This document shows positions 1-7,079 of a DNA stretch of 7,079 bases, piece by piece. The position numbers and the translations under genes are program-made. Below the pieces are notes generated by a model that was given only the letters and a program-made list of their open reading frames with translations, made no database searches and was not told where the DNA came from. Source of the DNA: Escherichia coli (GTDB lineage Bacteria; Pseudomonadota; Gammaproteobacteria; Enterobacterales; Enterobacteriaceae); assembly GCF_003334305.1 (NCBI RefSeq), contig NZ_QOWS01000048.1. One strand, written 5' to 3'. Numbering within the stretch: the first letter of the stretch is position 1; each line of letters opens with the position of its first letter.

Positions 1-183
1 TCACGCCTGAAGGGAAAGCTGCACGTTATCAGCAAGCGTTACACTCAGCGCATTGAGCGACATAATCTGAATCTGAGGCAGCACCTGGCACGGCTGGGAC
101 GGAAGTCGCTGTCGTTCTCAAAATCGGTGGAGCTGCATGACAAAGTCATCGGGCATTATCTGAACATAAAACACTATCAATAA
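1..183 (+). CDS. insB: IS1 transposase InsB (InsAB') C-terminal fragment; 5' end outside window
   Basis: Open frame from the window edge to TAA at 181-183; the encoded C-terminus ...[24 protein letters not shown] matches IS1 InsB as I recall it. Confidence 0.85.
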
Positions 184-198: not shown

Positions 199-981
199 TA
201 CAACTGGGTACAGCATGAACCCTCAGACAGAAAACAAAGTGATGAGCGGCTAAAACTGGAGATTAAGGTGGCACATATCCGCACTCGCGAAACATATGGA
301 ACCCGGCGGCTCCAGACGGAGCTGGCAGAGAATGGCATCATCGTTGGTCGTGACCGACTGGCACGTCTTCGTAAGGAGCTAAGGCTACGCTGTAAGCAGA
401 AACGCAAGTTCAGAGCGACTACGAACTCGAACCACAATCTGCCAGTTGCGCCAAATCTGCTGAACCAGACGTTCGCTCCTACAGCACCAAATCAGGTCTG
501 GGTGGCGGACCTGACGTATGTTGCCACACAGGAGGGATGGTTGTACCTCGCTGGCATCAAAGATGTTTATACGTGCGAAATTGTCGGCTACGCCATGGGA
601 GAGCACATGACAAAAGAGCTGACAGGTAAAGCCCTGTTTATGGCGCTCAGGAGCCAGCGCCCACCTGCCGGGCTAATCCATCACTCTGATCGAGGTTCAC
701 AGTACTGCGCATACGATTACCGGATCATACAGGAGCAGTTTGGTCTGAAAACATCAATGTCGCGTAAAGGTAACTGTTACGACAACGCTCCGATGGAAAG
801 CTTCTGGGGAACGCTGAAAAATGAGAGCCTGAGCCACTATCGTTTTAATAACCGGGATGAAGCCATCTCAGTAATACGGGAATACATTGAGATTTTCTAC
901 AATCGTCAGCGTCGTCACTCTCGTCTGGGGAATATCTCCCCGGCAGCCTTCAGGGAAAAATATCATCAGATGACTGCTTAA
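199..981 (+). CDS. IS3-family transposase OrfB (DDE integrase catalytic domain), 5'-truncated
   Basis: The six-frame ORF 268-981 is open in-frame back to 184, with no start codon of its own. Product has IS3-family OrfB hallmarks: ...NQVWVADLTYV...EGWLYLAGIKDVYTCEIVGYAM..., HHSDRGSQYCA..., SMSRKGNCYDNAPMESFWGTLKNE..., YNRQRRHSRLGNISPAAF. Close to but not identical with IS3, IS150 or IS911 OrfB as I recall them. Confidence 0.85.
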   Translation, partial: YNWVQHEPSDRKQSDERLKLEIKVAHIRTRETYGTRRLQTELAENGIIVGRDRLARLRKELRLRCKQKRKFRATTNSNHNLPVAPNLLNQTFAPTAPNQVWVADLTYVATQEGWLYLAGIKDVYTCEIVGYAMGEHMTKELTGKALFMALRSQRPPAGLIHHSDRGSQYCAYDYRIIQEQFGLKTSMSRKGNCYDNAPMESFWGTLKNESLSHYRFNNRDEAISVIREYIEIFYNRQRRHSRLGNISPAAFREKYHQMTA

Positions 982-1023: not shown

Positions 1024-1223
1024 GGTATCAAAAAGCGATAGATGCAGCTAATACACGACATAACCAAGAAATAAATCATTAAACGACAACACTTAATACC
1101 ATATTGTGAAGATGTTCAGACATGGCGGAATTCCCCTATTCTTTGTTGGCGCTTACAACAGACTATATTCCGCCATATCTGTCTTTATTGTGTATAAACC
1201 ATCGATACTGATGTTTGATAGTG

Positions 1224-2522
1224 CTAAATAATCATTGGCGCAATCACAAAGCCTAATGCCACTCCAGCAATAATTCCCCCCAACCCAGGCAGCATAAATG
1301 GATGATTCAGCACATATTTGCCTACACGAGTTGTGCCGGTAGTATCAAATTCCATGGCAGCCAGTGATGTTGGATACGTTGGCAGTACAAATACTCCGGT
1401 GACGGCCACATAGGACGCCAGAATTGCCCAGGTGGGCACGTCAAGCGCGACGGCAAGCGGGATAATTAACGGCGTGGTCGCACCTTGCGAGTAGAGCAGC
1501 GCGCAAGTGCCAAAAAGAACCAGCGCCAACAACATCGGATACGCCTGCAAAATATCACCAGCAATATCTTTAATCTCAGTTAAATGCGCATCAATAAAAG
1601 TGGTGCCTAAGGTTACAATGCCGAGAATTACCGCCAGCGAACTCATCCCCGCACGGAATGTGGAGGTGAGAATAATGGCATCGGTCGCCGTCTTACACAG
1701 CATCACCATCAGGCAGGCGGCAGAGAGCATACAGATAATAATGATATCGCGTGTTTCCATCGGTTTACCGATATCAAAACCCGGACGCAGTTGGGGGAAG
1801 GCAGCAAGAATAACAATAGCGACCGTCGCCAGCAGGAACAATCCGACGGAGAGCGTCGCACCTGGCTTGATGCTGCTATTATTCTCGTATTTTTGCACCA
1901 GTCCTTTTTGCAGGCGCTCAAGGTAGACCTCGTCATCCTGCAACTCACATCCCTGTCGGGAAGCAATAAAAGCGGCGACCATCGCGGCAGCAAAAGAGGT
2001 GGGAAGACATACCGACATCACTTGAATAAAACTGACACCGTTTACCTCCATAATAGTGAGCATAGCCGCCATTGCGGCGCTGATCGGCGAACCGGAAATC
2101 GCAACCTGCGAAGCGACAACCGAACCGGCAAGCGTGCGGGAAGGACGGATACCGGACTCTTTCGCCACTTCAGCAATCACCGGCAGCGTGGAAAAAACAA
2201 TAAACCCAGTACCGGCCATAATGGTCATAGACCAGGTGATAATCGGCGCGATTATGTTGATATATTTCGGGTTACGCCGCATAAAATTACCAGCGACGCG
2301 TACCAGATAATCCATTCCGCCTGCGGCCTGTAAGGCTGAGGCCGCCACAACAACGGTCATAATAATCAGGATCACGTCGACTGGCGGCGACCCCATAGGC
2401 AGACCAAATCCCAGAGTCAGAATGGCAAGCCCAAGCCCGCCACATAAACCAATACCGATTCCCCCCTGGCGAATACCAAAAAATATTGCACCAAGTACTA
2501 CGATAATTTCCAGCCAAACCAT
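1224..2522 (-). CDS. Anaerobic C4-dicarboxylate transporter, DcuA/DcuB family (432 aa)
   Basis: The 432-aa product aligns along its whole length with E. coli DcuA as I recall it (N-terminus MVWLEIIVVLGAIFFGIRQGGIGIG... versus DcuA MLVVELIIVLLAIFLGARLGGIGIG...; RRNPKYI, TLPVIAEVAKE, LPTYPT, GTTRVGKYVLNHPF motifs). Strongly hydrophobic throughout. GGAG Shine-Dalgarno 7-8 nt upstream of the ATG at 2522. Confidence 0.9.
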   Translation of the reverse strand: MVWLEIIVVLGAIFFGIRQGGIGIGLCGGLGLAILTLGFGLPMGSPPVDVILIIMTVVVAASALQAAGGMDYLVRVAGNFMRRNPKYINIIAPIITWSMTIMAGTGFIVFSTLPVIAEVAKESGIRPSRTLAGSVVASQVAISGSPISAAMAAMLTIMEVNGVSFIQVMSVCLPTSFAAAMVAAFIASRQGCELQDDEVYLERLQKGLVQKYENNSSIKPGATLSVGLFLLATVAIVILAAFPQLRPGFDIGKPMETRDIIIICMLSAACLMVMLCKTATDAIILTSTFRAGMSSLAVILGIVTLGTTFIDAHLTEIKDIAGDILQAYPMLLALVLFGTCALLYSQGATTPLIIPLAVALDVPTWAILASYVAVTGVFVLPTYPTSLAAMEFDTTGTTRVGKYVLNHPFMLPGLGGIIAGVALGFVIAPMII

Positions 2523-2587
2523 AATGTTCTCCGTTATAAATATAATTCAGTTAAAAGCGAATAACTTTCTGGCTGCGATTTAAATGA

Positions 2588-3307
2588 TTATTGGGTTAAA
2601 AGATAATGTTTACCGACACGATTTTCGTACCATTTTATTCCGGCACGAACGAGTGACGCCGTTGAGTCAATATAGCGGGAAGGCTGCTCTTTAACGGCTT
2701 GCGCCAGAATAACCGGAATTTCTGTACAACCAAGAACAAGGATTTCTGCACCGCGAGAAAATAATATTTCAGCCTGCTCATTCATCAACTTTTGTGCGTG
2801 CGCTATATTGCCAGCTTTCAAGGAATAAATACTTTCCATCACTTTTTTCTGACCGTCGGCATCGGGGCTGACACAGGTAAATCCCAGCGACTCAATTCCT
2901 TTTTGGTATAAACCCATATATAGCGTGGCATTGGTGGCTAACAAGCCAATTCGGGTTTTACCACAGGCGCGAACTTCATTGATCGTAGTTTCTACGATAC
3001 TTAATATATCAATATGACAAGCATCTTTTAATTCTTTGAACCAGTAATGCGCGGTATTACAGGGAATAACAATACATTCTGCCCCGGCATCTTCCAGCTT
3101 ATGCATATAATCACGCATAACGGGTAATGGTGAACGCCCATGATGCATTAATGCATCGGTACGGTCAGGAATATCCGGGATCGAAGAAATAATTAAAGGA
3201 ATATGTTCCTGATCACATTGTGCAGCGGTAAAAGTTACAAATTTATTAAACAGGTCGACGGTAGCTGCCGGCCCCATTCCACCGAGTACACCAATTAAAC
3301 CTTTCAC
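2588..3307 (-). CDS. Asp/Glu racemase-family enzyme, aspartate-racemase-like (239 aa; GTG start)
   Basis: Signature motifs of PLP-independent two-cysteine amino-acid racemases: GVLGGMGP near the N-terminus, IVIPCNTAHYW (first catalytic Cys) and LVLGCTEIPV (second catalytic Cys). Start codon is GTG at 3305-3307 with a GAGG Shine-Dalgarno ~10 nt upstream; an in-frame stop lies 4 codons further upstream. Only 65 bp separate it from the downstream Dcu gene on the same strand, with no terminator seen, so the two are probably co-transcribed. Confidence 0.85.
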   Translation of the reverse strand: MKGLIGVLGGMGPAATVDLFNKFVTFTAAQCDQEHIPLIISSIPDIPDRTDALMHHGRSPLPVMRDYMHKLEDAGAECIVIPCNTAHYWFKELKDACHIDILSIVETTINEVRACGKTRIGLLATNATLYMGLYQKGIESLGFTCVSPDADGQKKVMESIYSLKAGNIAHAQKLMNEQAEILFSRGAEILVLGCTEIPVILAQAVKEQPSRYIDSTASLVRAGIKWYENRVGKHYLLTQ

Positions 3308-3651
3308 AATACCTGCCTCTCAAAACGTTAATGACAATACGCGGTAAATAACTGCTGCTCTCTTTTTTAACAGTCGAAATGGGCGATGAGAAATGCAAGG
3401 TTGTACAAGGCGATGCAAGACACGCATGATGCAGCTATGGAACATTCCGCTTATTCACCATAGTGATGATGTATTCTGGTTATCTGACGGAAAAATTTCG
3501 TTTTTTTGGCGAAATGTGATATCAACGTCAATACCGGAAATGAAGGGGTTATGCACAAAACGAATGATAAAGGCCAGGTTGTGCTAATTGAGAACATTAT
3601 TTTTATTGCCGGGATGTTTTATTATGTCTTTGGATTGAAAATACAGGTGCC
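3308..3651. promoter_or_regulatory. Divergent promoter/operator region between the racemase-Dcu operon and the LysR gene
   Basis: 344-bp non-coding gap between divergent start codons. Contains three 10-bp-phased direct repeats (atgcaagg 3393-3400, gtacaagg 3403-3410, atgcaaga 3413-3420), an overlapping ATGC-N7-GCAT dyad (3413-3427) and a TCAC-N4-GTGA dyad (3455-3466) with LysR-type T-N11-A spacing. Confidence 0.5.
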
Positions 3652-4596
3652 ATGGTAATGAAGAATATCGAGACAAAATGGTTATACGATTTCCTGACAC
3701 TGGAAGCCTGTCGCCATTTTTCTCAGGCGGCAAAAGAGCGTAATCTTTCGCAACCCGCATTCAGCCGACGAATTAAGGCGCTGGAGGCAGCGATCGGCGT
3801 TGTTTTATTCGATCGCACGACCACCCCTTTACAATTAACCGAAGAGGGCAAGCTCTTTCATTCCCAGACTCGCAGCTTATTACAGCAGCTTGAATGCAAT
3901 TTGGGGGAGTTAAACGGCCAGAGTTTACTCGGCGTTCCCAACATTAAAATTGCAGCCGCGCACTCACTATCCCTGAGCGTATTACCCAAACTGGTGCATT
4001 CACTTACCGCCTATGGCGGAGAATTTGTCTATCATGTTGAAGCCATTGATGTTGTCCAGGCCGTAAATACGTTACGCGAAGGCAAGAGTGACTTTATTAT
4101 TTCGTTTCGCGATGAAGATCTTATGCAATCGCCTTTTTGCTGCCTGAAACTGTTTGAATCTGAGTTGTACCCGGTATGTGCCGCCGACGCACAGGGGCAC
4201 CCTGTATTCGATATCACTCAGCCCCAGGTTCCTTTGCTCAACTATACCGCCACATCTTATATGGGCAGGTTGGTCAATCGTCATCTGGCAGAGGTTGGAG
4301 GTATTACCGGGCGCACGATATTTATCTCTTCGATGAGCGAGTTATTAAAGAATATGGCGCTCAACGGATACGGCATTGCCTGGTTACCGATCTGGTCGAT
4401 CGTCGATGAACTACAGACCAAACGTCTGATATGCCTTGATGCTGCTAAATTGACAGTCCCCATTCAGGCTTATATTTACCGAATGAACACCCGACTGAAT
4501 AGAACCGCCGAGAACCTCTGGCGTATTTTACAGGAACATATGCCAGACGATTTAATCCAGCAGATATCAATGGAAGAGCCAGCATGCCGCAATTGA
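3652..4596 (+). CDS. LysR-family transcriptional regulator (LTTR), YjiE/HypT-like; true start more likely the ATG at 3658
   Basis: N-terminal winged-HTH region (...LEACRHFSQAAKERNLSQPAFSRRIKALEAAIGVVLFDR...) followed by a LysR-type substrate-binding domain. The N-terminus resembles what I recall of E. coli YjiE (...NIETKWLYDFLTLE...). An AGGTG Shine-Dalgarno at 3645-3649 sits 8 nt before the ATG at 3658 but only 2 nt before the ATG at 3652. Confidence 0.9.
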   Translation: MVMKNIETKWLYDFLTLEACRHFSQAAKERNLSQPAFSRRIKALEAAIGVVLFDRTTTPLQLTEEGKLFHSQTRSLLQQLECNLGELNGQSLLGVPNIKIAAAHSLSLSVLPKLVHSLTAYGGEFVYHVEAIDVVQAVNTLREGKSDFIISFRDEDLMQSPFCCLKLFESELYPVCAADAQGHPVFDITQPQVPLLNYTATSYMGRLVNRHLAEVGGITGRTIFISSMSELLKNMALNGYGIAWLPIWSIVDELQTKRLICLDAAKLTVPIQAYIYRMNTRLNRTAENLWRILQEHMPDDLIQQISMEEPACRN

Positions 4597-4613
4597 CGAC
4601 GTGCAATAAATAT

Positions 4614-4637
4614 CCTCCGGCATAGCCGGAGGTTTTT
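4614..4637 (+). terminator. GC-rich hairpin plus T5 tract 18 bp downstream of the lysR stop (probably the IS200 right-end hairpin)
   Basis: CCTCCGGC-ATA-GCCGGAGG perfect stem (4614-4632) followed by TTTTT (4633-4637) has the form of an intrinsic terminator for plus-strand transcripts. By my boundary estimate it lies inside the IS200 right end. Confidence 0.6.
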
Positions 4638-4713
4638 CAAATGCGCCTATAAGGCTCTCTTACCAGCCGCGCCCTAACAGGCGCACACGATCTGACATTT
4701 GCATCCAACTTCG

Positions 4714-5173
4714 TTACTTACGGTCCGTAAACGGGCTGCCCGGACAGGGAATCGATAACTGCTCTCCCATTTTATCCTCTTCAAGCTGGTGCTTTATGTA
4801 ATCCTGTATCTTCGCCGTGTTCTTACCCACTGTATCGACGTAGTCCCCCCTGCACCAGAACTCCCTGTTCCTGTATTTGAATTTCAAATCACCAAACTGC
4901 TCGTAAAGCATCAGACTGCTTTTCCCTTTCAGATATCCCATAAACCCGGATACGCTCATTTTGGGCGGGATCTCCACAAGCATATGGATATGATCTGCAC
5001 AGCATTCAGCTTCCAGAATCCGTACGCTTTTCCACTCACACAGCTTTCTCAAAATACTGCCTGTTGCTCTACGCTTCTCTCTGTAGAACACCTGTCTTCG
5101 GTATTTTGGCGCAAAAAACTATGTGATATTTACAGTTCCATCGGGTGTGCGCTAAGCTCTTTTCGTTCCCCAT
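4714..5173 (-). pseudogene. tnpA: IS200 transposase tnpA (Y1/HuH), apparently frameshifted
   Basis: ATG at 5173 (minus) opens MGNEKSLAHTRWNCKYHIVF, then the frame changes at a T6 run (plus A6 at 5113-5118). The remainder ...FAPKYRRQVFYREKRRATGSILRKLCEWKSVRILEAECCADHIHMLVEIPPKMS...FWCRGDYVDTVGKNTAKIQDYIKHQLEEDKMGEQLSIPCPGSPFTDRK* is in another frame (six-frame ORF 4714-5091). The intact IS200 TnpA as I recall it reads through ...KYHIVFAPKYRRQ..., so this copy appears to carry one extra T. Confidence 0.75.
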
Positions 5174-5179
5174 TGGGAC

Positions 5180-5249
5180 CCCCTTTTGATTTCTTGTTTG
5201 ACACTTGCAGTTGCCAGACCGCAAGGTGTTTTAACAAATCAAAAGGGGT
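5180..5249 (-). promoter_or_regulatory. IS200 5'UTR stem-loop that sequesters the tnpA ribosome-binding site
   Basis: Perfect 13-bp inverted repeat: CCCCUUUUGAUUU pairs with AAAUCAAAAGGGG across a ~44-nt loop on the minus-strand transcript. The 3' arm contains the AAGGGGG Shine-Dalgarno just upstream of the AUG at 5173. Matches the described IS200 nt 69-138 structure. Confidence 0.7.
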
Positions 5250-5283
5250 TTTAATAACTGGCTCAAAGCTGAAAGCTTTCCGG

Positions 5284-5306
5284 AACCCCCAGCCTAGCTG
5301 GGAGTT
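5284..5306 (-). promoter_or_regulatory. IS200 left-end hairpin (described as blocking read-in transcription)
   Basis: Minus-strand AACTCCCAGC-TAG-GCTGGGGGTT forms a 10-bp stem (one G.U pair) with a 3-nt loop, 23 nt in total, at the position expected for the IS200 nt 12-34 hairpin. Confidence 0.55.
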
Positions 5307-5316
5307 TTCTGTGCAC

Positions 5317-5344
5317 AAAAAAACCCTGTAAAAAACTTACAGGG
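5317..5344 (-). terminator. Perfect palindrome plus T7 tract (minus-strand intrinsic terminator) abutting the IS200 left end
   Basis: Minus strand reads CCCTGTAA-GTTTT-TTACAGGG followed by TTTTTTT (plus 5324-5344 stem-loop, plus 5317-5323 A7): an 8-bp perfect stem with a U-tract. Confidence 0.55.
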
Positions 5345-5942
5345 GTATAAGGCTTAGCCTAACTTGCGTCTGTTGCATGGTGCCGGGTGCCTCCCGGTGA
5401 ATTCAGTCGGTGTCACTGAACCCGCGTAGGCTTCGCTCATAACATAATAAATGCTATGTACACCAGTCGCCCCACCGCACAGGGGGATTCACCACACGGC
5501 GCACTTTTTAACAAATATCCCTCCGGCCAGACAATAATAAACATAATGAATTGTGATCTTCTTAACAGTTTTAAAGTGTTACAGATAACATGCCAAGTAA
5601 TTGCTTGTTTTTTCATCAATAGGAAGACCACACCAACAACCCCAGCTATCAGCCAGAACCGACATTATCCGGCTGATAAAATCTACCATCACTCCAACAC
5701 CAATCACCGCCTGTGCCAGATCGCGTTTCTCAAACTTTTTAATCTCTGTTGCCACTCTGCGGGTTTTCTTTTTGAATTTTGAAAATACCAAATATCGTGA
5801 CGTTTCTTTGGGGGATGAGCTATCAAGCGGGAACGATCTGCCTACAGAGAAAGTCAGCCAGACCACTCTGCAAATTATCCCCGAAAGGCTCTGTGGCTGA
5901 TATGCGCCGGGCATGGCGCAATGGGCCAGTGGCAGTGTGTGA

Positions 5943-6657: not shown

Positions 6658-6788
6658 ATAGTTGAGCTGGCCTCTCAGTAAATATCAATACGGTTTTGGT
6701 GAGCCGCTTACCACTGAAGCATCACTTCGGCAGGTAGATTTCTGCAGGCAGAATGGCGCTTACCTTAGCGATAAGCGCGTAAATGTGG

Positions 6789-7079
6789 TTATTCAATACC
6801 TGTGGTGACTGTAAAAGTGCGCGTTTGCTGCGGTGCAACCTGAATCAGCGTGCCATTACGTTGCGCGGCAAGATACCCCTCAGGTCGACAGGTTGCTGGT
6901 AATGCAAAGGCGGCTACCTGTTGCTCGCCGTTATAAAGGATCCAGCGTGTCACATAATTTAGTTCAGCACTGGAGAAACGAGTAACAAACGTAGTGCCAT
7001 CGGGAGCGATCATGCGAAACTCTGGCTGATCTGTGTAAGCGTCCAGTTTGTCTGCAAAGAAGACTATTTCTGGATCATA
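6789..7079 (-). CDS. 3' end of a protein-coding gene of unknown function (C-terminal 96 aa; continues beyond the window)
   Basis: Minus-strand frame is open from the window edge at 7079 to TAA at 6789-6791: YDPEIVFFADKLDAYTDQPEFRMIAPDGTTFVTRFSSAELNYVTRWILYNGEQQVAAFALPATCRPEGYLAAQRNGTLIQVAPQQTRTFTVTTGIE*. The six-frame ORF 6789-7013 is its internal-ATG-limited part. I recognise no family. Confidence 0.5.
   Translation of the reverse strand, partial: YDPEIVFFADKLDAYTDQPEFRMIAPDGTTFVTRFSSAELNYVTRWILYNGEQQVAAFALPATCRPEGYLAAQRNGTLIQVAPQQTRTFTVTTGIE

Follow-up and report, generated by a model that had tools for sequence, protein, structure and literature searches.

The Escherichia coli stretch analyzed here (7,079 nucleotides of contig NZ_QOWS01000048.1, NCBI RefSeq assembly GCF_003334305.1, hereafter the window) carries three adjoining genes, encoding a Dcu-family transporter, a two-cysteine racemase and a divergent LysR-type regulator. 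Which compound do these genes handle, and in which direction? A preliminary description of the sequence had proposed the uptake of a D-amino acid, for example D-aspartate, and its conversion to the L-form, or the reverse. The list of open reading frames (ORFs) contains the three genes as described (Table 1). The D-aspartate hypothesis was correct yet not new, because this function has already been published for this DNA (PMC6980539). Finding it again adds nothing new on function; what the present analysis adds is the conservation range of the cassette, a critique of the CuyB and HypT labels of its products, a LysR-type box and the Met11 start of a published orf8-only clone.

A D-aspartate cassette of the SRL island

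The reference locus lies on the Shigella resistance locus (SRL) pathogenicity island that Shigella flexneri 2a YSH6000 carries (GenBank accession number: AF326777), in which orf7 encodes a LysR-like regulator, orf8 an aspartate racemase and orf9 a DcuA-like transporter (Henriquez et al. 2020, PLoS One 15:e0228178, PMC6980539). All four primers of that study match the window without mismatch and in the expected geometry. Judged by these exact matches and by the shared order of LysR, racemase and Dcu carrier genes, the window cassette is the orf7-orf8-orf9 locus of the SRL island. The surroundings differ, as the window belongs to an E. coli chromosomal island with insertion sequences (IS1, IS600 and IS200) and a sugar cluster, and not necessarily to the 66-kb SRL island.

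In Biolog assays, D-aspartate was respired by an island-positive strain and not by an island-free strain, with raw values of 128/83 versus 19/19 in the supplementary table (PMC6980539). An orf8-orf9 amplicon, corresponding to positions 1024-3452 of the window, restored D-aspartate respiration in the island-free strains S. flexneri 1363 and S. sonnei 566. It also restored the loss of D-aspartate with appearance of L-aspartate, as followed by chiral high-performance liquid chromatography-tandem mass spectrometry, and growth on D-aspartate in two island-free Shigella hosts, and neither orf8 alone nor orf9 alone complemented (PMC6980539). L-aspartate appeared outside the cells when D-aspartate was supplied (PMC6980539). 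This work showed that orf8 and orf9, taken as a pair, are necessary and sufficient for D-aspartate respiration, for the conversion of external D-aspartate to L-aspartate and for growth (PMC6980539). Import of D-aspartate and its conversion to the L-form, as proposed in the preliminary description, are genetically demonstrated for this DNA. The accompanying statement that no characterized system has this arrangement did not hold: the arrangement is published (PMC6980539), and “AspR-DcuA” is given as an SRL-island trait in a 2020 review (PMC7545054). Our literature search found no later functional study of orf7-9; a tomato paper from 2024 compared whole-island strains only. The core claim, that a horizontally mobile cassette allows Shigella and some E. 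coli to eat and detoxify D-aspartate, is settled in the literature.

The locus is very probably a D-aspartate uptake-and-racemase cassette, orf7-orf8-orf9, in an IS-ridden chromosomal island of E. coli type. In the mechanism that we propose, the Dcu-family carrier encoded by orf9 would take D-aspartate in, possibly in exchange for L-aspartate or a C4-dicarboxylate. The cytoplasmic, cofactor-independent two-cysteine racemase encoded by orf8 would then turn D-aspartate into L-aspartate and, as family knowledge suggests, the C-alpha would be deprotonated and reprotonated through the cysteines of the PCNTAH and GCTE motifs. L-aspartate would enter central metabolism through housekeeping enzymes such as aspartase and transaminase. 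No aspartase gene and no DcyD/CuyA-type lyase gene was found within 6-12 kb of the racemase gene in 32 racemase-family loci; since no catabolic enzyme is encoded nearby, the product would have to feed housekeeping metabolism. Speculatively, the L-aspartate found in the medium would be in line with a carrier that works by exchange.

The orf8 and orf9 genes would form one operon, transcribed from a promoter within the 344 bp that separate the divergent genes and most likely activated by the orf7 product bound at a conserved ATGC-N7-GCAT box. A single operon is supported by the short gap of 65 nucleotides between the two genes, in which, as the preliminary description had noted, no terminator was detected on that strand. 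The RNA across this gap showed no fold beyond that of shuffled sequences (-6.7 kcal/mol, z = +0.76), and the gap is only 13 nucleotides in Actinobacillus rossii. A GAGAGG motif can be read about 8 nucleotides ahead of the GTG start codon of the racemase gene.

Several points weigh against this interpretation. RefSeq now names the enzyme a cysteate racemase, a label discussed below. The failure of single genes to complement is weakened, in the case of orf8, by a truncated clone: the published orf8-only construct starts at an internal ATG (position 3277, codon 11; Met11) and lacks the ten conserved N-terminal residues, the MKGLIGVLGG strand, encoded from the GTG at position 3307. Homologs, including two crystal structures, start with a conserved M-K-x-x-I-G-[IV]-L-G-G strand, and the missing N-terminus may explain why orf8 alone did not complement. 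This failure is therefore not proof that the carrier is required; a requirement of the carrier for growth on D-aspartate is likely. The complementing clone was carried on the high-copy plasmid pUC18 and contained no orf7 (PMC6980539), so the regulator was not required under those high-copy conditions. The substrate range and the direction of the flux rest on whole-cell data (PMC6980539). Finally, the ATGC-N7-GCAT dyad is not unusual alone, as 0.27 occurrences are expected per window and at least one was present in 49 of 200 shuffled sequences, and its weight thus comes only from conservation and recurrence.

We surveyed the cassette by neighborhood look-ups and by one scan of a genome collection with a single protein query (24 loci, close relatives only). 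A LysR gene divergent from a racemase gene, itself followed by a dcu gene, was found in E. coli, E. albertii, at least 12 Citrobacter, Trabulsiella, Limnobaculum, Leminorella, Providencia and A. rossii. The regulator gene was divergent from the racemase gene in all cassette loci where a regulator was detected. The neighborhood comparison suggested in the preliminary description shows a three-gene cassette conserved from E. coli as far as A. rossii. The flanking genes differ by genus in the neighborhoods inspected (E. coli, Citrobacter, Providencia and A. rossii), and the persistence of an intact triad amid unrelated genes argues for functional coupling. Moving from Citrobacter to A. rossii, identity with the corresponding window protein falls from 87% to 58% for the racemase, from 92% to 69% for the transporter and from 82% to 59% for the regulator. 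Of the three products, the transporter varies least between genera (92% versus 84% and 82% in Citrobacter).

In Citrobacter, the cassette occupies an ordinary chromosomal context, between pseudouridine and fructose phosphotransferase system genes, and for this reason the island copy of E. coli and Shigella has the look of an older enterobacterial unit that was captured. In Edwardsiella ictaluri (locus L009, positions 8948-10595), the racemase gene and the LysR gene are kept, no Dcu gene accompanies them, and they adjoin an element of the IS605 type (TnpB and Y1 transposase); the cassette may be disrupted in this species. The cassette is no Shigella oddity, being a conserved unit in many host-associated Enterobacterales and in at least one member of the Pasteurellaceae, and the use of D-aspartate may be a wider trait of the gut niche.

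Substrate of the racemase and direction of the carrier

On the evidence of profiles and alignments, the orf8 product is an aspartate racemase of the two-cysteine type independent of pyridoxal 5'-phosphate (PLP). It matches the Pfam family PF01177 (Asp_Glu_race; E = 2e-44, residues 8-222) and the amino acid racemase model TIGR00035 (187.7 bits, cut-off 93.1). Against the PDB, it reached 259 bits with 3S7Z and 170 bits with 1JFL. In the alignment with these two structures, the GGMGP, IPDRT, PCNTAH, LKAG and GCTE motifs are kept and both catalytic cysteines (in PCNTAH and GCTE) are aligned, which bears out the two-cysteine Asp/Glu-family racemase recognized in the preliminary description. The enzyme falls in the aspartate-racemase branch and not in another branch of the family, and no unrelated function has been demonstrated for the locus. 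Maleate isomerase, hydantoin racemase and arylmalonate decarboxylase are not among its NCBIfam matches, and the models for glutamate racemase and for the YgeA-type broad-spectrum racemase scored far under their cut-offs (for YgeA, NF007569, 55 bits with a cut-off of 417). YgeA-type enzymes carry a Thr/Cys catalytic pair.

The racemase shares 43% identity with the structurally characterized aspartate racemase of Pyrococcus horikoshii (1JFL, 2DX7), together with the two catalytic cysteines, IPDRT and K(A)G. The latter is an archaeal stand-alone enzyme, and we know of no transporter or LysR gene coupled to it. Closer relatives are the “putative aspartate racemase” of Salmonella (3S7Z, 3S81 and 5EVC) and its ortholog in Citrobacter amalonaticus, which belong to the same racemase subfamily, share 53-55% identity (53% for 3S7Z) and have all catalytic motifs. 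A HypT-family LysR gene also adjoins these racemase genes. They differ from the cassette in having no Dcu gene, in having a true hypT ortholog and iadA-yjiG-yjiH as neighbors, and in the orientation of the LysR gene, which is convergent there and divergent in the cassette. The literature search turned up no functional study of the Salmonella protein.

The cysteate racemase CuyB, characterized in Bilophila wadsworthia, is paired there with CuyA, a D-cysteate sulfo-lyase (PMC11193023). The orf8 product scores 249 bits on the corresponding NCBIfam equivalog (NF052483, cut-off 190), which is above its TIGR00035 score, and the cuyB name appears on several RefSeq genomes. Cysteate is moreover a close analog of aspartate, DcyD, a relative of CuyA, is encoded elsewhere in the E. 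coli genome, and the B. wadsworthia CuyB is itself a member of the aspartate-racemase family with an acidic amino acid carrier next to it (PMC11193023). The cassette could on these grounds be a cysteate module, in which L-cysteate would come in through the carrier, be turned into D-cysteate by the racemase and then be cleaved by a D-cysteate sulfo-lyase or D-cysteine desulfhydrase encoded elsewhere. We consider this highly improbable. When known and structural aspartate racemases were scored on the CuyB model as a control, the P. horikoshii enzyme reached 233.9 bits (203 of 228 residues) and Salmonella 3S7Z 228.9 bits. The model is thus non-discriminating, and because aspartate racemases pass its cut-off, the CuyB name carries no substrate information. 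In the available text of PMC11193023, the specificity of the B. wadsworthia enzyme was probed only with cysteate, cysteine and serine, and no test on aspartate is reported.

The genomic and phenotypic data also speak against a cysteate module. The CuyB system is defined by the association of CuyA with CuyB (PMC11193023), and the DcyD/CuyA-family gene that this would call for is missing from the surroundings of the 32 racemase-family loci mentioned above. A tblastn search with E. coli DcyD gave nothing at E <= 1e-5 in the 424 kb of sequence flanking these loci, and no PF00291 gene was present in the Pfam-annotated neighborhoods of the cassette and racemase loci. In the Biolog PM4 test, run with L-cysteic acid as sulfur source only, values were 29/34 with and 28/30 without the island, in contrast to the island-dependent D-aspartate values given above (PMC6980539). 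The likeness to CuyB-CuyA consists of a PF01177 two-cysteine racemase that lies beside an acidic amino acid carrier and passes the CuyB cut-off, a cut-off that aspartate racemases pass as well. The differences are that neither a CuyA lyase nor a RidA partner lies near the cassette, that the carrier is of the SDF type in the B. wadsworthia system (PMC11193023) and of the Dcu type here, and that the cassette confers no island-dependent cysteate phenotype with L-cysteic acid as sulfur source. The orf8 enzyme may well racemize cysteate in vitro; aspartate is the demonstrated physiological substrate of orf8-orf9 (PMC6980539). RefSeq naming is inconsistent, with “aspartate/glutamate racemase family protein” in some records, “cuyB cysteate racemase” in others and “hypT” for the regulator. 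The CuyB and HypT names arise because the cut-offs of the hidden Markov models are passed, and public annotation (cysteate racemase, HypT) has in this way drifted from the experimental D-aspartate result.

The transporter assigned to the DcuA/DcuB family in the preliminary description indeed belongs to it, with 495.5 bits on TIGR00770 (cut-off 331) and 582.6 bits on NF006927, and PF03605 is assigned to its orthologs. It shares 49% identity with DcuA and 34% with DcuB of strain K-12. The closer match is thus DcuA, which among the E. coli Dcu proteins is the one that transports L-aspartate, and the orf9 product is presumed to be the D-aspartate carrier. The aspA-dcuA pair of K-12 offers a parallel, as a DcuA-clade carrier is there too genetically coupled to an aspartate-converting enzyme, and the enzyme gene precedes the carrier gene in each pair. 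In K-12, the partner is a lyase and the carrier transports L-aspartate and C4-dicarboxylates, whereas the cassette has a racemase, a dedicated divergent LysR regulator and the D-enantiomer as presumed substrate.

Dcu carriers such as E. coli DcuA and DcuB act as exchangers, and two-cysteine aspartate racemases are reversible enzymes. Both properties would also suit a cassette working in the biosynthetic direction, in which L-aspartate would be converted to D-aspartate and exported by the Dcu-type carrier for cell-wall remodeling, signaling or competition. The L-aspartate found outside cells given D-aspartate does point to carrier-mediated efflux of an aspartate enantiomer (PMC6980539). The demonstrated phenotypes are nonetheless the consumption of external D-aspartate and growth on it (PMC6980539), and inducible catabolic cassettes would typically be laid out in this way, with a divergent LysR activator next to a two-gene transporter-enzyme operon. 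To our knowledge, enterobacterial peptidoglycan contains no D-aspartate. We regard an export function as very improbable, and retain uptake followed by racemization.

The regulator and its putative operator

NCBIfam profiles place the orf7 product in the LysR family, in agreement with the preliminary description, and it passes the HypT equivalog NF007488 (407.6 bits, cut-off 301). It shares 59% identity with K-12 HypT (YjiE/QseD) over 294 residues. By comparison, identity to K-12 HypT is 83% for the C. amalonaticus ortholog, whose gene adjoins iadA-yjiG-yjiH. A native hypT gene is present in 5,393 of 5,426 complete E. coli genomes. These two observations together indicate that the cassette regulator is an additional paralog and not HypT itself; going by sequence similarity and by its position away from hypT-iadA-yjiGH, orf7 fails as a HypT ortholog and is classed as a paralog of HypT/YjiE. 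Each of the two regulators has a neighboring operon preceded by a dyad of the ATGC-N7-GCAT type, and they differ in their locus and in their neighbors (iadA-yjiGH in K-12, racemase-dcu here).

HypT is reportedly activated by oxidation of Met123, Met206 and Met230, a finding attributed to Drazic and colleagues in 2013. In the alignment, Met206 and Met230 are kept in the orf7 regulator and Met123 is replaced by Leu. The proposal that orf7 is a second hypochlorite sensor, with the racemase and the carrier serving the reactive-chlorine stress response and not nutrition, can draw on the HypT equivalog score and on these two of the three methionines, and hardly stands up against the Leu at position 123, an identity of 59% where an ortholog from another genus has 83%, a nearly universal native hypT that leaves orf7 as an extra copy, and a demonstrated D-aspartate function of the adjoining genes that needs no oxidant (PMC6980539).

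The divergent LysR-racemase intergenic regions of eleven loci were aligned. The sequences are unalignable save for two conserved islands. The racemase-side island includes the ATGC-N7-GCAT dyad, with the T-N11-A pattern of LysR-type boxes, a TTGCAT half-site abutting a -35-like element, and an extended -10-like element separated from the latter by a spacer of 17 nucleotides (Table 1). In the half-site/-35 region, TTGCATTTC varies little or not at all across the loci from E. coli to Providencia, and the CTGTTAAA block at the -10-like element is conserved. This arrangement of a half-site abutting the -35 element suggests an activation site for a LysR-type regulator. A scan for consensus promoters gave fewer sites than in shuffled sequences and none at the conserved region. 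Nearer to the regulator gene, a conserved alignment block contains a degenerate pair of boxes, possibly an autoregulatory site.

The dyad is the sole ATGC-N7-GCAT match in the window. Of the 27 cassette loci, 26 have such a dyad between the LysR and racemase genes, and its seven central bases vary by species. The exception is A. rossii, where the box on the racemase side is degenerate and the perfect dyad is found in the block on the regulator side; with it, the pattern is present between these genes in every cassette locus. This conservation supports a putative role of orf7 in controlling orf8-orf9. The racemase-side box is retained in the complementing amplicon that was published, and orf7 is absent from it. 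The same type of dyad is found upstream of yjiH in K-12 (ATGCGTTTTTTGCAT; locus L011, positions 8797-8811, at about coordinate 4,560,796 of K-12) and in C. amalonaticus (locus L008, positions 11166-11180), and upstream of the racemase gene in Edwardsiella (locus L009, positions 6731-6745). The center of the dyad is T-rich in the window, in K-12 and in C. amalonaticus. The dyad may be an operator shared by HypT-family regulators, and its position in K-12 suggests that HypT controls yjiH-yjiG-iadA-hypT through an ATGC-N7-GCAT box. No HypT binding site was described in the papers found by our literature search.

HypT-family regulators and aspartate racemases are neighbors in two paralogous versions. 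Besides the cassette, a paralogous aspartate-racemase gene immediately adjoins the true hypT ortholog in C. amalonaticus (locus L008, positions 7001-8652); the matching position next to hypT in K-12 is occupied by iraD. A literature search linking aspartate racemase, yjiE/HypT and iadA found no such paper. A tentative and somewhat doubtful possibility is that orf7-type regulators and K-12 HypT form one LysR subfamily with an ATGC-N7-GCAT operator in front of aspartyl-metabolism operons, and that HypT-type regulators would then primarily serve to control D-aspartate or isoaspartyl salvage, responding to a small-molecule effector. The operons concerned would be racemase-dcu (the window, Citrobacter and Providencia), the racemase gene (Edwardsiella) and yjiH-yjiG-iadA, which includes the isoaspartyl dipeptidase gene (K-12 and C. 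amalonaticus). If this were true, the hypochlorite response of K-12 HypT would be secondary or additional. The orf7 regulator and its conserved putative operator tie the cassette to the poorly understood HypT/YjiE family.

Genomic setting in E. coli

Many E. coli chromosomes match the region from 1100 to 4700 of the window at 100% identity. At least 80% of this region is carried by 348 of the 5,426 complete E. coli genomes, that is, a cassette frequency of about 6%. Over all 7,079 bases, the window differs from E. coli 2021CK-01784 by one mismatch. In that strain, the module lies between IS1 with an IS600 fragment and a frameshifted IS200 tnpA gene, in a patchwork island that also contains fecE, an amino-acid decarboxylase/antiporter cluster and a sugar cluster. 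The features of the window are listed in Table 1.

Table 1. Coordinates of the genes, primer sites, putative regulatory elements and flanking features in the window.
Feature	Position	Strand	Basis or remark
IS1 end	about 1-183		RefSeq annotation of a near-identical E. coli stretch
IS600/IS3 fragment	199-981		RefSeq annotation; IS3 transposase confirmed by NCBIfam
orf8-orf9 amplicon, reverse primer	1024-1047	+	Exact match
Dcu-family transporter, 432 amino acids (SRL orf9)	1224-2522	-	ORF list; ATG start primed by the published orf9 forward primer
orf9 forward primer	2505-2522	-	Exact match, at the transporter ATG
Racemase-transporter spacer, 65 nucleotides	2523-2587	-	GGAG ribosome-binding site about 8 nucleotides before the transporter ATG
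Predicted two-cysteine, PLP-independent aspartate racemase, 239 amino acids, GTG start (SRL orf8)	2588-3307	-	ORF list, profiles
orf8 forward primer	3261-3277	-	Exact match, at racemase codon 11
Extended -10-like TGtTAAAAA, putative racemase-transporter promoter	3364-3372	-	Suggested by sequence and conservation
TTGCAT half-site (3393-3398) abutting -35-like TTCTCA (3387-3392)	3387-3398	-	Read from the sequence
Dyad ATGCGTGTCTTGCAT, ATGC-N7-GCAT, T-N11-A LysR-type box	3413-3427		Putative recognition site of the orf7 product
orf8-orf9 amplicon, forward primer	3432-3452	-	Exact match
Degenerate box pair nearer the regulator gene, ATTCGTTTTGTGCAT (3551-3565) and CTTCATTTCCGGTAT (3531-3545)	3531-3565	-	Conserved alignment block
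LysR-type regulator, 314 amino acids from the first ATG (SRL orf7)	3652-4596	+	ORF list; RefSeq start at ATG 3658
GC-rich hairpin with T-runs on either side	4614-4632	both	Terminator scan; 8-bp stem with 7 G-C pairs
IS200 tnpA, frameshifted	4714-5173		RefSeq annotation; IS200 transposase confirmed by NCBIfam
Small RNA family STnc490	5183-5306	-	Full-length Rfam match, 143 bits
Small RNA family STnc100	5313-5527	-	Full-length Rfam match, 136 bits
tRNA-like match, Rfam RF00005	5946-6013	-	Marginal, 30.7 bits with a gathering threshold of 29
Aldose 1-epimerase family gene (RefSeq), past the right window end	6789-7802		ORF 6789-7013 (-) begins at its start

The GC-rich hairpin lies 18 nucleotides past the stop codon of the regulator gene and is likely a bidirectional terminator closing the module, as suggested by its T-runs. 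Of the mobile-element framing claimed in the preliminary description, three IS families were verified where four had been named. The tRNA relic it had reported is represented by the marginal Rfam match only, ARAGORN calling no tRNA in the window; this match fits a decayed tRNA or an attachment remnant of the island. The two small RNA matches beside the IS200 tnpA gene probably belong to IS200 and the sequence flanking it. Within the module, the G+C content is about 41-42% in the racemase gene and in the intergenic region between the divergent genes (2500-3500) and about 51-53% in the transporter gene (1250-2500). The aldose 1-epimerase gene belongs to a fucP-like/rbsK-like/DeoR sugar cluster unrelated to the D-aspartate module.

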